From assembly GCA_963663965.2 (NCBI GenBank), contig CAXXFK010000032.1, forward strand, positions 64,001-128,000: DNA of 64,000 nucleotides. The letters are read 5' to 3'. Source of the DNA: Sedimentisphaerales bacterium (GTDB taxonomy: Bacteria > Planctomycetota > Phycisphaerae > Sedimentisphaerales > SM23-30). Of this stretch, positions 36,001 to 42,000 are shown in pieces. The position numbers are program-made. Every line of letters starts with the position of its first letter. The first letter of the stretch is position 1.

Positions 36001-39000
36001 CCCGCGCGATCCCGAAGTCCAGAATCTTGATCTGATATCGATCTCCGTACACCATGACATTGGATGGCTTCAGGTCGCGATGCAGAACATGACAGCTATG
36101 GGCGTAATCCAGCCCGATGGCGATCTGGCGGCCCAGGTAGATCGTATCGCTCAACCCGAGTTTACCCCTGGTCTTCTTCGCCAGGATCTGTTCCAGGGTT
36201 CGTCCCGGAATATACTCCATCACGATAAAATACTGAAACCCATCGGTATGCATATCGTATAACCGCACAATATAAGGATGGGTCAGTTGCCGCGTGGTCT
36301 GGGCCTCCTGCTTCAAACTCTTGATCGCCCTGGGGTTACTGGCCAGCGTCGGCGGAATAAATTTGATCGCCACCTGCGCCCCTTCCAGCATATCATCCGT
36401 GGCCAGATAGACCATCCCCATTCCCCCTTCACCCAGCTTGCGCAAGATCCGGAACCGGTCTGCCAGCAGTTTGCAGGCATCACCACCCTCCGTCTTCACC
36501 GTGGGCAATCGGTCCAGCGTATGATAAACATCATCCAGATCCTTCTTTAACAGATTTTTATTCGGGAATTCTACCATGACACACCTGCTATTATCCGTTG
36601 GTTTCCTTCTTAAGTTTCGTTTCGATTTCACGCAGCATCAAGTCAATATGATTCTCGGTCGCGCTGGCCTGACCTTCCGCCTCCCGCCCAATCAATTCAT
36701 CGATCTGTTCGATCCCCGGCAGACCATCATCATCCGGTTCATAATCCAGCGTACTGCCGCTGACCCGGTCCAGCACCATATTCATGGTCCGGTCCATCTG
36801 CCGGGCGTTGGCCATCGCCAGATTCAACTCTCCGATCGTCTTGGTCAGATCGATGTTCTTGAACACCGACGCGATCGATTTGGTCGCCGCCTGCAATCCC
36901 TTGGCAAACTCGCCATAACTCTCGATCCGCTCCTTCGTCTGCACCATCGCTTCAAACGTCAGCAGCGCGCTCTCCAGCCGCCGCCGCTCGGCCATTGTCT
37001 GCAATAGCAGCTTCGCCAGCTTCTGATAATTCTCCGGATCCCCGATCTGGCGTGCCCGCACTGCTTTTTCGCAGTAGCCCCGCTCATGCTTCTTCAACTC
37101 CTTGATACGGCGCCGGTGCAAATCCAGCACATTCTGGATCGCCAGATCCCGTTCCAACTGCTTCTGCTGCTTGCTCTTAAATAATCCCATTAAATAAACT
37201 CCTGTATCAAGTTTGCCTGGTTGTCATTTTGCCGGTTATCCACTAAGACACCCCGTTCCCCCACCTCTCAAACCGTTCCAGATCCTCACCTCCCGTTCCC
37301 GGCCGGATCCGCTCCAGCGCCGCCTCCAGATCTGCCACCCGGATCGCTTCCACCTTCAGTTCATAACTCTCCAGCGCCACCCGGCCCGACTCCGCCACCC
37401 GCGCCAGATCCGGGTTCGCCCGCGAGATCATCCGCCGGATCAGTTCTTTCCCAATCTGCTCCAGCTCCCGGCCGCTATAACCCTCCGTCCGGGCAGCCCA
37501 CTCAGCCAGATCGCCCTCAACCTGATACCCCCGCCGGGTCAGCAGCAACTCCAGAATCGTCTCCCGCGCCGCTCCATCCGGCAGATTCACATACGATAGC
37601 TTGCCAAACCGCGACAGCACCGCCGAATCGATCAGCCACGGCTTATTCGTCGCCGCGATCACCAGCACCAGCCGGCCATCCGACTTGCTCTCGAAGCCAT
37701 CCATACTGGTCAGCAATTCCGCCAGCACCCGCCGTTCAGCGCCATCGGCCCGCCCATCCCGGTCCGGCACCAGCGACTCAAAATCATCCAGAAAGATCAC
37801 CGATGGATGCATCCGCGCCGCCAGTTCAAACACCGCGTTAATCAGCTTGCCCGACTCGCCAAAATACTTGCTCAGCAGATCGCTCACCTTACACGAAAAA
37901 AACGTCGCCTCCAGCCCTTTCGAAATCGCCGCCGCCACCAGCGTCTTGCCCGTTCCCGGCGGGCCGTACAGCAGCAGGTTGGCATGCCGCGGCAGCCCCA
38001 CCCCCTCCGGCCGCTTCGCCAGCGCCAGTGCGAACGTCTCCTTGATAAACTGCTTGATCTCATCCAGACCCGCGATATCTTCCCAGCCAACCTTCGCCTT
38101 GCGGATCAACTGCCGCGCGTTCTCAAAATAACCCGCCTCCTCCGGCCCCACCGCCGCTTCCACATCTCTATCCGCCCCATCCGCCTCAGTATCCTCAGCC
38201 GAGCCTCCCGCGCGCAACTGCTCCGCCAGCTTCTTCAGCTTCTCCGCGTCCGCCAGCCGCCTGGCCCGCACCGATTCGCTCACCGCGCTCCTGGCATACC
38301 GGGCCATCAACTCACCCGCCCGCGCATACCGCACCGCCGCCGCCTCACCCTGACCCGCCGCCTCCAGCGCACGCGCCTCCACCAACACCCCGTTCCAACT
38401 GCTCACCGGTTACACCACTCAAATCTACCATAAAATTCTAATTTCCTTGTTCTAAAAGTCAGGCTTTTCCAAAGTACTATCCAAATTCCATCCATCTCCC
38501 ATCGCATTACTGAGGTCCAAAGGACCGCCAGTTCCTAGCCGGGGGCGTCAGCCCCCGGAAAACGAGCTCCCCCCACACAACAAGCCCCGGAGGGGCGACA
38601 GAATTAATCAAAAATATAACGCTTATCATATTCCACTCCATGTTTATCCAGCAACTGGATCAACTCCGTTTCATAACTCATCACCTCATGATGCGCCTGC
38701 TGGCCGTTGACATAATCGACAACCTTCTGCAAACCGGAATACGAAACCGTAAACGACGAATACCCTGTTTGCCAGGCAAAAAACGAACAGCCGCCATCAG
38801 TCTCTTTATACCATTTCGAGGAATTGGCTTTCACATCTCTGACAAAATCAGCCAGACACTCTGCCGGCTTCAGTTTCGCCACCAGATGAATATGGTCCGG
38901 CATACCATTGGCAGTAACCAAAACCTGACCTCGATTCCTGACAATCCCGCCAAGATAATCACACAAGCGCGGAATCGTTTCAATATTAATCAATCGCCTC

Positions 39001-42000
39001 CTCTCTTTGGTCGAAAAGACAATATGATAATATAACTGAGTAAAAGACACTAATAATATCCTTTCGCCCTTTCAGGGCTTTGTTTTATTCTACTATCCTG
39101 TCCCGGGGCCTCACGGCCCCGGCTAAAAACTCGCGGCCCGTCGGGCCTCTCCAATGGACGATGTTATTTTCATGTCAATTGACAGATCACATCTTCATTT
39201 CAACAATCATTTTTTTCTTAAAATCACAATTCCCAAAGAACTATCCAAATTCCATCCACCCCCCATCGCACCACCGAAGCCCGAAGGTCGAAGATCCGCC
39301 TCAGGAGGAACCGCCAGTTCCTAGCCGGGGGCGTCAGGCGTCAGAGTCTTTATTGTATTTTTCAATCACACATTTCCAAAGAACTATCCAAACTCCATTC
39401 ATCCCCCATCGCACTCCTGAGGTCCAAAGGACCGCCAGTTCCTAGCCGGGGGCGTCAGCCCCCGGAAAAAGACTCCCCCCACACAACAAGCCCCGGAGGG
39501 GCGACAGAATATTTATTCATTTCTTTCAATCTCAAACAAAACGCTTTCGCCCTTTCAGGGCTTTGTTTTATTCTACTATCCTGGTCCGGAGCCTCACGGC
39601 CCCGGCTAAAAACTCACGGCCCTTCGGGCCTCTCTAATGGCTAGGTTATTTTTAGCGCTATTGACGCTTATCATGCACATTAAACACAAATCAAGAACAC
39701 CTCTTATAACTATCCATTCCATCCTTCTTCTAAAATAACAAATCGCCAAAACACTTCAAATAACCAAATCTCCTCATCATCATTTCATATACAGAAATGA
39801 TGAAACTTCTTTTTCTTATAATCTCATATTTCCAAAGAACTATCCAAATTCCATCCATCCCCCATCGCACACCTGAAGCCCGAAGGTCGAAGATCCGCCT
39901 CAGGAGGAACCGCCAGTTCCTAGCCGGGGGCGTCAGGCGTCAGAATAAAAGCACGCTCCCATCTCAAGGCCCGAAGGGCCGAAAGATTTTCCCTTTCGCC
40001 CTCCACCCAAATATCCCTATTATCAAAAAAACTTCTATTCAATTTTTCATACTCCAGGGGACCTACCCCCTAGCCCCCCAAAAAGAGTAACCAAATCAGT
40101 CCAGACCTCCAACGCACAACACCCGAAAACCTAAATCGCGGCAGACAGGGATGATCCAGTAGCGATTGGCGGTGCGGCAGCTGATTTCACCATTGTTCCA
40201 ACTGCCGCCGCGCAGAACACGGCGGGCGCCACTGGTCGGCCCAATTGGATCACTAGCTGGACTTTTACTGTAATAATTCTCATCATACCAGTCCAGACAC
40301 CATTCCCATACATTGCCATGCATATCATATAATCCCCAGCCATTCGACTGCTTCTGGCCCACTGGATGAGTCTTACCACCACTATTGTCATCATACCAGG
40401 CATAATTACCCAACTGGCTCACGCTATCACCAAAACTATAGTCTGTTTTCGTTCCAGCCCTACAGGCATATTCCCATTGCGCTTCCGTTGGCAAAGTATA
40501 AGTCTTTCCTTCCAACTCACCTAACTTCTTACAAAATGCCATGGCATCTTCCCAACTCACACTCTCCACCGGATTGTTATCACCTTTAAAACTACTGGGA
40601 TTCGTCCCCATCACTTTTTCATATTGGGCCTGGGTCACTTCATACTGTCCCAGCCAGAAGCCCTTCGTAATCTTCACCTGATGAACCGGCTTCACATTAC
40701 CCTTTCCATTATGACTCCCCATCATAAACTCACCCGGCCCGATCCACACCAGTTTCATGCCGATACGATTGGTCATCAAATCACCCGGTTCGGGCCCATA
40801 GTATCCAGCAATTTTCTTATATAATGACAACGCCTCTAAATGTCCCGGTTCCAATTTTAAAAGTTCATCCAGCGCCTTAAGGGCCTCTCTTCCATCAGTC
40901 TTATTATCCTTAGCGCGCGCCAAAATTAACAGCCTGTCAATCTTTTGACGAACAATAATTTTTTGCGGCCGCTGGATTCTTTTCGTTTTCTCTTCTATCG
41001 CGTCCAGCATGCGGCTCAATCGCCTGGCCGGCTGACTGCCATTGGCCACGCCGGCAATGGCGGCTGATATCTCCCGGTCTTTATCATCCAGATAGTCAGC
41101 CGCTTCTTGCCGGGCCTTCACCATTGCCTCGGCAAATTGATAGTCTTCCAGTCCAAGCTCTTCATCCAGGTACATCTCCCATAACGCTTTCAGATCAATA
41201 AAGACACCAGACTGACCGGTTCCAGATGAACTTGATTGCGCCTCGATCTGAAAATCCCGCCAGTATTGACGCGCCTTTTCGAGATCTTCACCACTCAGGC
41301 CGACCGCGATCGCCAGCGGCATCCGTCGCGCGTTTTCTGACGCGTCCAGTCGCGGTTGCGGGATATGCTCCCAGGCCACGGAGGGCTTGTTGCGGACTAT
41401 CCAGCGGCGCACGCCATCAGCCACATATTGATTCAAGGTGCCCACTGTGACAAAGCCGCCTTCATCCGCCTTCGCCTGTCCGCGTAAACCCTGCAATAAA
41501 AAATGGGTAAATACCCCATAACCGCTGTCGGGGTCTTCATAACTGAGTTGACCAATGCCGCAACTGGTCAGGGTAATCTGGCCCCGCCCGGCGGCAAAGG
41601 CTTTCATAAAGGCTTCACTCATCGCCGGCCCGGCGCCACCCGACTTGCTGCGGCCCACCCGTTCCCGGCAGGCGTCCAGAATAACCATCTTCTTGCCCGC
41701 CCTGGATTCACTGATGGTATCGGTCAATATCTTGGAACGCAGGGCCGTATCGCTCAGATAGGCGCGCAGACCATCGGACGGCATGATATAAATGCTGTTA
41801 TCATCTTCAAAGCCATGTGAACTGACTGATACGATTACCAGGTCTTCACCGGATACCGGCATGCGGGTGGCAATAATCAGTCCATTCAGGATATCGCTTT
41901 TAGCCGCGTTTTTCAATTCCGCGCCGGCAGCTTTCAATCGCCGCAACTGCTCTACGGCAACCGGCAGGGTTGGCTGACCGGACAGACACAAAATACAGTT

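Follow-up and report, generated by a model that had tools for sequence, protein, structure and literature searches.

Acido-Lenti-1 most likely belongs to a three-hairpin DNA repeat bracketing a Y1 transposase gene

The Rfam motif Acido-Lenti-1 (RF01687) has been listed since 2010 as an sRNA with no known function. It most likely belongs to a DNA repeat of three hairpins that flanks, on both sides, the small gene of a Y1 transposase acting on single-stranded DNA, and that is dispersed in the genomes carrying this gene. In the 64,000-nt stretch of a Sedimentisphaerales bacterium genome analyzed here (the window), such a gene lies between two inverted arms of about 100 nt. We read the unit as REPtron-like, with a subclass-1.2 Y1 gene between the arms and Acido-Lenti-1 as the outer half of each arm, and assign this reading a probability of about 0.8.

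The locus and its copies in the genome

Across the whole 64-kb window, cmscan recovered only RF01687, with four strong matches (42.4 to 46.9 bits) exceeding the gathering score of 37 and a weak extra match at 17056-17098. The features of the window are as follows, with H1, H2, and H3 denoting the inner, long, and outer hairpins of an arm.

38513-38558, minus strand: RF01687 match, 46.9 bits
39103-39148, plus strand: RF01687 match, 45.1 bits
39420-39465, minus strand: RF01687 match, 46.9 bits
39586-39631, plus strand: RF01687 match, 42.4 bits
38604-39050, minus strand: Y1 (HUH/Tyr) transposase gene, 148 aa, GTG start, Pfam Y1_Tnp, E value of 1e-22
38505-38601: left arm, three hairpins; H3 38514-38526, TAG/CTA 38536-38538, H2 38539-38558, H1 38584-38596
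39062-39156: right arm, inverted; H1 39066-39078, H2 39103-39122, CTA 39123-39125, H3 39135-39147
39411-39639: gene-less doublet; left arm 39411-39509, spacer 39510-39542 (33 nt), right arm 39543-39639
39268-39345, minus strand: incomplete left-type arm that retains H3 and half of H2 and contains a palindromic micro-insert of about 22 nt at about 39287-39308
39867-39987, minus strand: left-type arm whose H2 is damaged; it contains the same micro-insert (about 39886-39907)
38459-38504: outer flank of about 45 nt, duplicated along with every one of the four left-type arms (further copies near 39229, 39366, and 39828)
17047-17147, minus strand: solitary dispersed arm with three hairpins, belonging to the same family

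The survey's finding was that one Acido-Lenti-1 pair brackets the 148-aa Y1 gene and that a second pair is gene-less. The four above-threshold matches bear this out, and the recomputed coordinates agree with the spacings given (46, 53, about 270, and 120 nt). The placing of the motif at the element end also stands, but its extent does not. The arm is a unit of about 100 nt, in which two hairpins with 5-bp stems and 3-nt loops surround a longer hairpin, together with a fixed CTA/TAG, and the Rfam model covers only H2 and H3 (38513-38558 in the left arm and 39103-39148 in the right arm), leaving out the inner hairpin H1.

The second pair had been described as a REPIN/MITE-like doublet. It is an inverted gene-less pair but not an independent insertion, since it sits inside a stretch (39366-39944) that duplicates the gene-bearing unit (38459-39345) in tandem, with 541 nt swapped for 33 nt. 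The outer flank of about 45 nt travels with all four left-type arms and is absent beside arms at other loci, which marks it as a trace of local duplication.

Genome-wide, RF01687 gave 9 matches above the cut-off, reproducing the earlier count, and 44 at an E value of ≤1, while an nhmmer model built on the window arms gave 49 matches in the genome and none in the reversed genome. The gene-less doublets reported on contigs C1 and C30 exist, with all four arms below the cut-off (one at 32.6 bits). As a correction to the earlier picture, doublets make up a minority of the copies in this genome; only 3 of the neighbor pairs among 61 arm matches are intact (-)/(+) doublets, and two further doublets have one broken arm. 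Three doublets share equal spacing. About 20 arms are embedded in a larger repeated mosaic and may have been spread by something other than the Y1 enzyme. The genome contains two subclass-1.2 Y1 genes, 38% identical to each other, each paired with its own dispersed arm type. The copy reported 122 nt downstream of the Y1 gene on contig C19 is present but incomplete as a description; a full arm (C19:126147-126259) begins at the stop codon, and an upstream arm is absent.

Arms beside relatives and across genomes

The homologue set comprised 80 loci, mostly from Planctomycetota and Bacteroidota. All 88 Rfam matches at these loci are RF01687, and 50 of them are no farther than 150 nt from the gene, an 11-fold enrichment over the remaining sequence. 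The nearest match points outward at 39 of 44 gene ends, so the earlier statement that the copies read outward holds on the Rfam strand, although it may be the opposite strand that is functional. No Rfam match was found at 46 of the 80 loci, and no match to a wider arm model at 12. The suggestion that copy-less loci use other ends was not upheld, as most of them carry diverged forms of the same arm.

With the three-hairpin model, arms flank the Y1 relatives at 58 of 77 loci in several phyla, with arms on both sides at only 24 of the 77, and nothing was found in nine unrelated loci. Of the downstream ends, 50 of 79 have an outward arm no more than 70 nt away, as do 34 of 78 upstream ends; inward arms number 4 and 2, respectively. 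When training arms were excluded, outward arms were present at 31 of 60 downstream and 16 of 60 upstream ends. A hairpin with a 5-bp stem and 3-nt loop occurs within 66 nt after the stop codon at 54 of 79 loci, compared with 51 of 589 control windows. Among the paralogs kept out of training, both arms were found in 18 of 20 fetched, and in 16 of 18 the left arm most closely resembles the right arm of the same gene (matched in none of 20,000 permutations). Genome G041 holds 11 (-)/(+) doublets spaced 103 to 107 nt. The outward bias, flanking arms, gene-specific pairs, and doublets together support the core of the survey's finding, that the motif belongs to the inverted DNA ends of a Y1 transposase unit and that gene-less copies are dispersed.

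Covariation of the arm is strong, with 97.7% paired positions, 80 compensatory cells, and none of 500 shuffles as good; a one-column slide of the pairing register gave 63% pairing and 4 compensatory cells. Such covarying stems would also fit RNA, and the motif may be viewed as a functional RNA (an sRNA, a terminator, or an mRNA-stabilizing hairpin set) with a regulatory link to the gene. Weinberg et al. graded it "probably" RNA (PMC2864571), the inner hairpin lies 4 to 30 nt past the stop codon at many loci, and REP-type repeats are able to act in transcripts. However, both gene ends carry the same arm in inverted orientation, each paralog has arms of its own, and doublets and tandem arrays occur even within the Rfam seed of RF01687 (periods of 69 and 192 to 200 nt). 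In addition, a register with UNCG RNA tetraloops was ruled out by the +1 slide control, and G.T (G.U in RNA) pairs, at 14 of 2,506 cells, are not commoner than A.C. A functional RNA as the main role is therefore very unlikely, though the arms could still have a secondary role in transcripts.

Among 151 genomes of the phylum, RF01687 was detected at an E value of ≤1e-4 in 43 and above the cut-off in 36, close to the 37 of 151 Planctomycetota genomes counted before. In 150 Planctomycetota genomes, 32 had both gene and motif, 4 the gene only, 10 the motif only, and 104 neither; the corresponding numbers for 99 genomes from the same phylum as the Acidobacteriota record G045 were 19, 3, 6, and 71. 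P values for this co-occurrence are overstated because kin genomes are not independent. Motif-positive genomes that were gene-negative with the queries used numbered 10 of 42 and 6 of 25, and some hold 16 to 28 copies (G057, G061, and G277). These motif-rich genomes, the nine other Y1-domain matches in the present genome, and the many arms inside the mosaic repeat would suit arms that are target sites or passengers spread by another enzyme, with the Y1 gene inserting between pre-existing doublets. Against this, no arm lies in the 120-nt flanks of any of eight inspected class-2-like Y1 genes, both subclass-1.2 genes have their own dispersed arm type, and the arm pairs of the paralogs are gene-specific. 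We regard the passenger scenario as extremely improbable.

The transposase and the mobility of the unit

The 148-aa protein contains the motifs DHIH (H53 and H55), W93-Q94, and Y113-V-N-G-Q-Q-A-H-H (Y113---Q117--HH121). H53, H55, W93, Q94, Y113, Q117, and H121 are invariant in 54 relatives. By the published motifs, the sequence fits TnpA-Y1 subclass 1.2, which is characterized by the HuH motif DH[IV]H, the W motif WQ, the Y motif Y---Q--HH, a median length of 148 aa, a conserved C-terminal domain of about 30 aa, and low copy number with diverged intragenomic copies (Quentin et al. 2018, PMC6006769). Beyond the core, F126, E129, and L134 are conserved. The earlier label "RAYT" is not supported: the NCBIfam model REP_Tyr_transpos scored 30.7 bits, below its cut-off of 80, no NP follows Tyr113 as in the class-2 motif Y---NP, and identity to 4er8 is 13%, versus 28 to 30% to ISDra2. 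A dimer prediction scored 0.78 (best control, 0.32), with runs sharing at least 98% of contacts and a pLDDT of 91; 20 of 30 solved pairs attained the score mark, as did 1 of 23 single chains. The modeled enzyme is probably a dimer, although this result may reflect only likeness to solved IS200 dimers.

The unit is inserted between rpoB and rpoC, carA and carB, hsdS and hsdM, or cas4 and cas1 in different genomes, and this interruption of conserved operons indicates that it has moved. At the orthologous carA/carB site of 30 Chryseobacterium-group loci, 6 have gene and arm, 3 a lone arm, and 21 neither. This patchiness, the interrupted operons, the score against the IS200/IS605 model NF033573 (60.1 bits; cut-off, 55), which does not separate subclass 1.1 from 1.2, and the nearest structures, ISDra2 and IS608 TnpA, would all agree with an ordinary, currently active IS200-type insertion sequence whose doublets are its MITEs. 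However, within-genome paralogs are diverged (median identity of 45%; 1 of 50 pairs at ≥95%, in 7 genomes), both flanks are kept at 16 Chryseobacterium loci, and the unit is nearly absent from plasmid (2 of 72,556) and phage (0 of 50,697) records. Moreover, TnpB was found in none of 119 neighbor ORFs, and the ends are inverted homologues. Such an ordinary, active IS200 element is therefore unlikely. The sole paralog pair at 95% protein identity (L151/L152) was ruled out as a case of transposition, as it shares a flanking gene. No clean empty-site pair or exact junction was seen among the loci compared; the locus is common to none of 40 relatives' genomes, and contigs from sequencing runs yielded short identical pieces, probably of the same organism, with no informative joint. 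The diverged paralogs, the lack of TnpB in these neighbors, and the operon interruption point to a REP/RAYT-like way of working on an IS200-clade enzyme.

Active strand, mechanism, and relation to known systems

On the strand opposite to that of Rfam, the loops read as GNA/GNNA DNA mini-hairpins, and the long hairpin is preceded on its 5' side by NTAG. NTAG precedes H2 in 120 of 141 arms (57 GTAG, 35 ATAG, 26 TTAG, and 2 CTAG), and the window arms carry CTAG and TTAG. Our guess, only slightly favored, is that this strand is the active one, with NTAG placed like the GTAG of REPs. However, CTA is kept 10 nt from the outer hairpin even in arms whose long hairpin is missing, and NTAG therefore need not be a REP-type tag. 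Assigning the strand from mismatch asymmetry failed, as 31 A.C versus 14 G.T became 13 versus 13 when counted per genome, and DNA folding energies favored neither strand. No cut site was found in arm comparisons. Conservation past the outer hairpin varies between genomes; as read by eye, R-T-G ends 19 of 21 arms of this genome 7 to 9 nt past the outer hairpin, and it is absent in G041 and in the cross-phylum alignment. Such an end would fit the right-end guide rule of IS608.

By analogy with IS200/IS605 and TnpA-REP (PMC8266576 and PMC2817692), the enzyme, probably as a dimer, would bind the folded hairpins on single-stranded DNA, nick through a 5'-phosphotyrosine on Tyr113, and rejoin the strands. 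This would spread arms, doublets, and arrays and would rarely move the whole gene unit. The REPtron and RAYT-REP-REPIN-BIME systems (PMC2817692 and PMC8266576) share with the unit a gene between inverted palindromic repeats, a cognate repeat per gene, dispersed doublets (at conserved spacing in REPINs, as in G041), tandem arrays, and synteny within a genus. In contrast, the enzyme here is of class 1 (IS200 clade), the end has three hairpins over about 100 nt, and the REP tag is GT(A/G)G rather than NTAG, whose role is uncertain. Subclass 1.1 of IS200/IS605 shares the family model and differs in its W[TS] motif, many near-identical copies, and frequent tnpB.

Subclass 1.2 itself was published as having no flanking REP or terminal hairpins and as occurring mainly in Cyanobacteria and Bacteroidetes (PMC6006769), whereas the loci here are mostly from Planctomycetota and Bacteroidota and carry arms. 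These arms are a new point and no reason to reject the protein assignment. In the accessible part of Bertels et al. (2017, PMC5581495), IS200 Group 3 is described as free of duplicates, missing from plasmids, and flanked by abundant 16-mers, and is called RAYT-like; matched by this description, it is probably the same family, and that part gives no repeat structure and no Rfam link. The model of Weinberg et al. (PMC2864571) may also lie on the wrong strand. As far as the available part of Di Nocera et al. (2013, PMC3733652) goes, TIRtrons, like the unit here, have Y1 genes flanked by long inverted repeats, some "double palindromic," and repeat families occur in Acidobacteria with a YGTC-like foot before short hairpins; Quentin et al. 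placed all 26 TIRYT examples in class 2 (PMC6006769). The CGTC repeats described there have a CGTC/TGTC foot, an 8- to 9-bp stem starting AT, a 4- to 5-nt loop, a CCA tail, and no transposase. Membership of the arms was ruled out, as their short hairpins, often with a TGTC/TGCC/CGTC foot, have 5-bp stems starting GC and 3-nt loops followed by T; overlap with another of the families described could still exist. No paper linking Acido-Lenti-1 to a transposase was found in the open literature, which excludes subscription journals and IS databases.

The REPtron-like reading would give one answer to three loose ends: an Rfam "sRNA" described as abundant and without a known function, a Y1 subclass reported to lack DNA partners, and an IS200 group with abundant flanking repeats. 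Pipelines that call Acido-Lenti-1 a regulatory RNA (e.g., 10.64898/2026.02.09.704811) would be marking mobile DNA. Since the enzyme has 148 aa and its likely substrate is an oligonucleotide of about 100 nt, the published TnpA-REP cleavage assay is directly applicable, and paralogs with different arms provide built-in specificity controls. Much more tentatively, and with the odds against it, subclass 1.2 might be a second and independent REP-like system built on a dimeric enzyme of the IS200 clade, in which every paralog maintains and disseminates its own single-stranded DNA repeat of three hairpins, uses the strand opposite to that of Rfam with NTAG as a guide, and occasionally moves its own gene. 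If true, it would represent a living stage between IS200 ends and REPs tagged with GTAG, and would occur across many phyla.

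Anatomy of the arm and its enzyme

A whole-Rfam scan of the 64-kb window returned RF01687 (Acido-Lenti-1) as the sole family, with four matches above the gathering score and one weak match; nine matches exceed the cut-off in the whole genome. The survey's finding of four copies, two flanking a 148-aa Y1_Tnp ORF and two forming a gene-less pair, was borne out, with all four above the gathering score in the places and on the strands claimed. Repeat finding and folding revealed that each end of the unit is an arm of about 100 nt with three hairpins (H1 to H3), of which the RF01687 model spans only H2 and H3.

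Layout of the unit from the gene outward
38604-39050: Y1_Tnp ORF, 148 aa, bracketed by two RF01687 matches
H1: adjoins the gene; 5-bp stem, 3-nt loop
Spacer between H1 and H2: 20 to 25 nt, variable
H2: 8-bp stem, 4-nt loop
Between H2 and H3: nearly invariant CTA, then 9 to 10 nt
H3: second 5-bp/3-nt hairpin, beyond the CTA

All three helices covary. Among 39 arms that flank genes (37 outward Rfam matches from 24 of 80 loci, plus the two window arms, a choice biased towards H2 and H3 and not towards H1), 97.7% of cells were paired and 80 were changed on both sides, a level matched by none of 500 shuffles; sliding by one column lowered pairing to 63% and both-side changes to 4 cells. Many Bacteroidota loci keep H1, CTA and H3 and have no H2, and for that reason escape Rfam.

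The 148-aa protein scores above the cut-off of the NCBIfam IS200/IS605 model and below that of the RAYT model, so the survey's label of RAYT/IS200 type stands only in its IS200 part. Among solved structures, both sequence and fold place it closest to the TnpA proteins of ISDra2 and IS608, with TnpA-REP more distant. It carries DHIH, WQ and Y---Q--HH, which together with the 148-aa length form the signature of TnpA-Y1 subclass 1.2, a subclass given as being without REP in the available portion of Quentin et al. 2018 (PMC6006769). A predicted two-copy structure scored 0.78 versus 0.32 for the best control (contact agreement of at least 98%, pLDDT 91); of the solved pairs 20 of 30 attained that mark, as did 1 of 23 single chains, and the model's pass may be due to the existence of solved IS200 dimers.

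Association of the arm with the gene

Among the best 80 of 424 loci encoding a relative of the Y1 gene, all 88 Rfam matches belonged to RF01687, which was present in 34 loci and absent in 46. Fifty of the 88 lay within 150 nt of the gene, an 11-fold enrichment, and of 44 gene ends 39 had their nearest match directed outward. With a full-arm model (178 of 202 matches used, E ≤ 1e-3), an outward arm lay no more than 70 nt from the gene at 50 of 79 downstream ends and at 34 of 78 upstream ends in these best 80 loci, or at 31 of 60 and 16 of 60 when training arms were excluded. At least one outward arm occurred at 58 of 77 loci and both arms at 24; the model had no match in 12 of the 80 loci and none in nine unrelated loci.

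Both arms were found at 18 of the 20 best-scoring of 30 listed paralogs from four genomes. In 16 of these 18, the left arm resembled its own right arm more closely than it did the right arm of any other gene in the same genome (0 of 20,000 permutations), and each of the two subclass 1.2 genes of the present genome has its own dispersed arm type. Motif and gene also go together at the level of whole genomes. Across 150 genomes of this phylum, 32 had both motif and gene, 4 the gene only, 10 the motif only and 104 neither, and the corresponding counts for 99 genomes from the phylum of an Acidobacteriota record were 19, 3, 6 and 71, with the centre genome and one unpublished genome excluded and related genomes not independent. 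Some motif-rich genomes yielded no gene with the queries used.

DNA or RNA, and the strand

An RNA helix is expected to hold an excess of G.U pairs. Of the 2506 helix cells in 141 distinct arms, drawn from 28 genomes, 2446 were Watson-Crick and 14 were G.T; counted per genome, G.T equalled A.C at 13 each. Loops on the Rfam strand read TNC in H1 (87 of 114) and H3 (87 of 104) and TNNC in H2 (87 of 108), and those on the opposite strand are GNA and GNNA, described in the accessible part of one source as DNA mini-hairpin loops that are much less stable as RNA (PMC13037366). Of the 141 arms, 120 also carry NTAG, most frequently GTAG, 5' of H2 on the opposite strand; it falls at the outer ends of doublets (gene-less inverted arm pairs), the placement given for REP dimers in the text of PMC3733652. 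The TAG-H3 distance is unchanged in arms without H2, which counts against over-reading NTAG, and folding energies are similar on both strands. We conclude that the motif is real and widespread and, with a probability of about 0.8, a DNA repeat system of the REP/RAYT type built on an IS200-clade enzyme.

By analogy with work on IS200/IS605 and TnpA-REP, as far as covered by the available part of PMC8266576, the arm hairpins would fold on single-stranded DNA and be bound by the enzyme, Tyr113 would make the nick, and strand transfer would rejoin ends into single arms, doublets and arrays. Comparison of arm ends in this genome, in genome G041 and in a cross-phylum alignment fixed no cut site. Our search found no literature tying the Acido-Lenti-1 motif to a transposase; partial prior art lies in IS200 Group 3, from what is available of Bertels et al. 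2017 (PMC5581495), and in TIRtrons as described by Di Nocera et al. (2013; PMC3733652), compared by text; the figures and alignment of that paper may affect novelty.

Copies, context and behaviour

The window contains a tandem duplication (38459-39345 versus 39366-39944) in which 33 nt stand in place of 541 nt including the gene, and its doublet is therefore of local origin; the gene-less pair exists, as a duplicate of the gene unit and not as an independent insertion. Genome-wide, 61 of 150 scored candidates matched the whole-arm model. About 20 arms lie inside a larger repeated mosaic and the remainder are single or tandem; intact (-)/(+) doublets amount to three adjacent pairs, with two more having one broken arm. 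G041 holds 84 motif matches, including 11 doublets at 103- to 107-nt spacing and tandem arrays.

The mosaic is AT-rich and non-coding, reaches about 1 kb, combines several short palindromes with arm variants, and occurs in about 20 copies, some after a short repeated ORF. A palindromic micro-insert of about 22 nt, which looks like a tiny mobile unit targeting hairpins, is found where stem meets loop in several short hairpins of unrelated kinds, among them H1 and H3 of these arms. The Y1 element interrupts a gene cluster (33644-43801, minus strand) that encodes the Snf7/ESCRT-III-like protein, the AAA ATPase and the second coiled-coil protein listed below, together with two FGE-sulfatase fusions, one to a caspase and one to a kinase. 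Four near-identical class-2-type Y1 genes of about 230 aa with short terminal inverted repeats, two of them identical as proteins, are a TIRYT-like element that spread recently.

Other features of the window and genome (C, contigs of this genome)
about 17260-17900, minus: mosaic copy
C11:260527, C19:93315, C20:131641, C32:170331: example mosaic copies
39287-39308 and 39886-39907: micro-insert, in 51 places genome-wide, once in tandem
36591-37190: Snf7/ESCRT-III-like protein (match to Pfam Snf7 at E 0.0012, short of the cut-off; Atlas matches with Snf7 in 13% of members)
37243-38406: AAA ATPase with AAA_lid_3, presumably Vps4-like
42352-43029: second coiled-coil protein
C22:74080, C11:18156, C30:159552, C28:556388: class-2-type Y1 genes

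Neighbour genes are unrelated, and the unit lies inside rpoB/rpoC, carA/carB, hsdS/hsdM and cas4/cas1 in different genomes. At carA/carB, where 58 genomes gave a match, the 30 best-matching loci comprised 6 with gene and arm, 3 with a lone arm and 21 with neither; this spacer (loci L153-L182) is a hot spot that contains, as well as the Y1 unit and depending on the species, a further family of palindromic repeats or small genes of unrelated kinds. In the Schlesneria loci L015 and L020 (1491-1944), the unit stands between cas4 and cas1 with the upstream arm only, and locus L012 has flanks in common with both. Restriction-modification neighbours (hsdS/hsdM, mrr) occur in 5 of 65 loci (L009, L014, L027, L038 and L064).

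TnpB was found in none of 119 neighbour ORFs (the longest per side, 65 of 80 loci), and the Y1 family on none of 50,697 phage and 2 of 72,556 plasmid records. The median identity among paralogs within a genome is 45%, with 1 of 50 pairs at 95% or more, and both flanks are kept in 16 Chryseobacterium loci. The behaviour of the unit is that of the RAYT/REP pattern, as described in the available part of PMC2817692, with signs that the whole unit moves occasionally.
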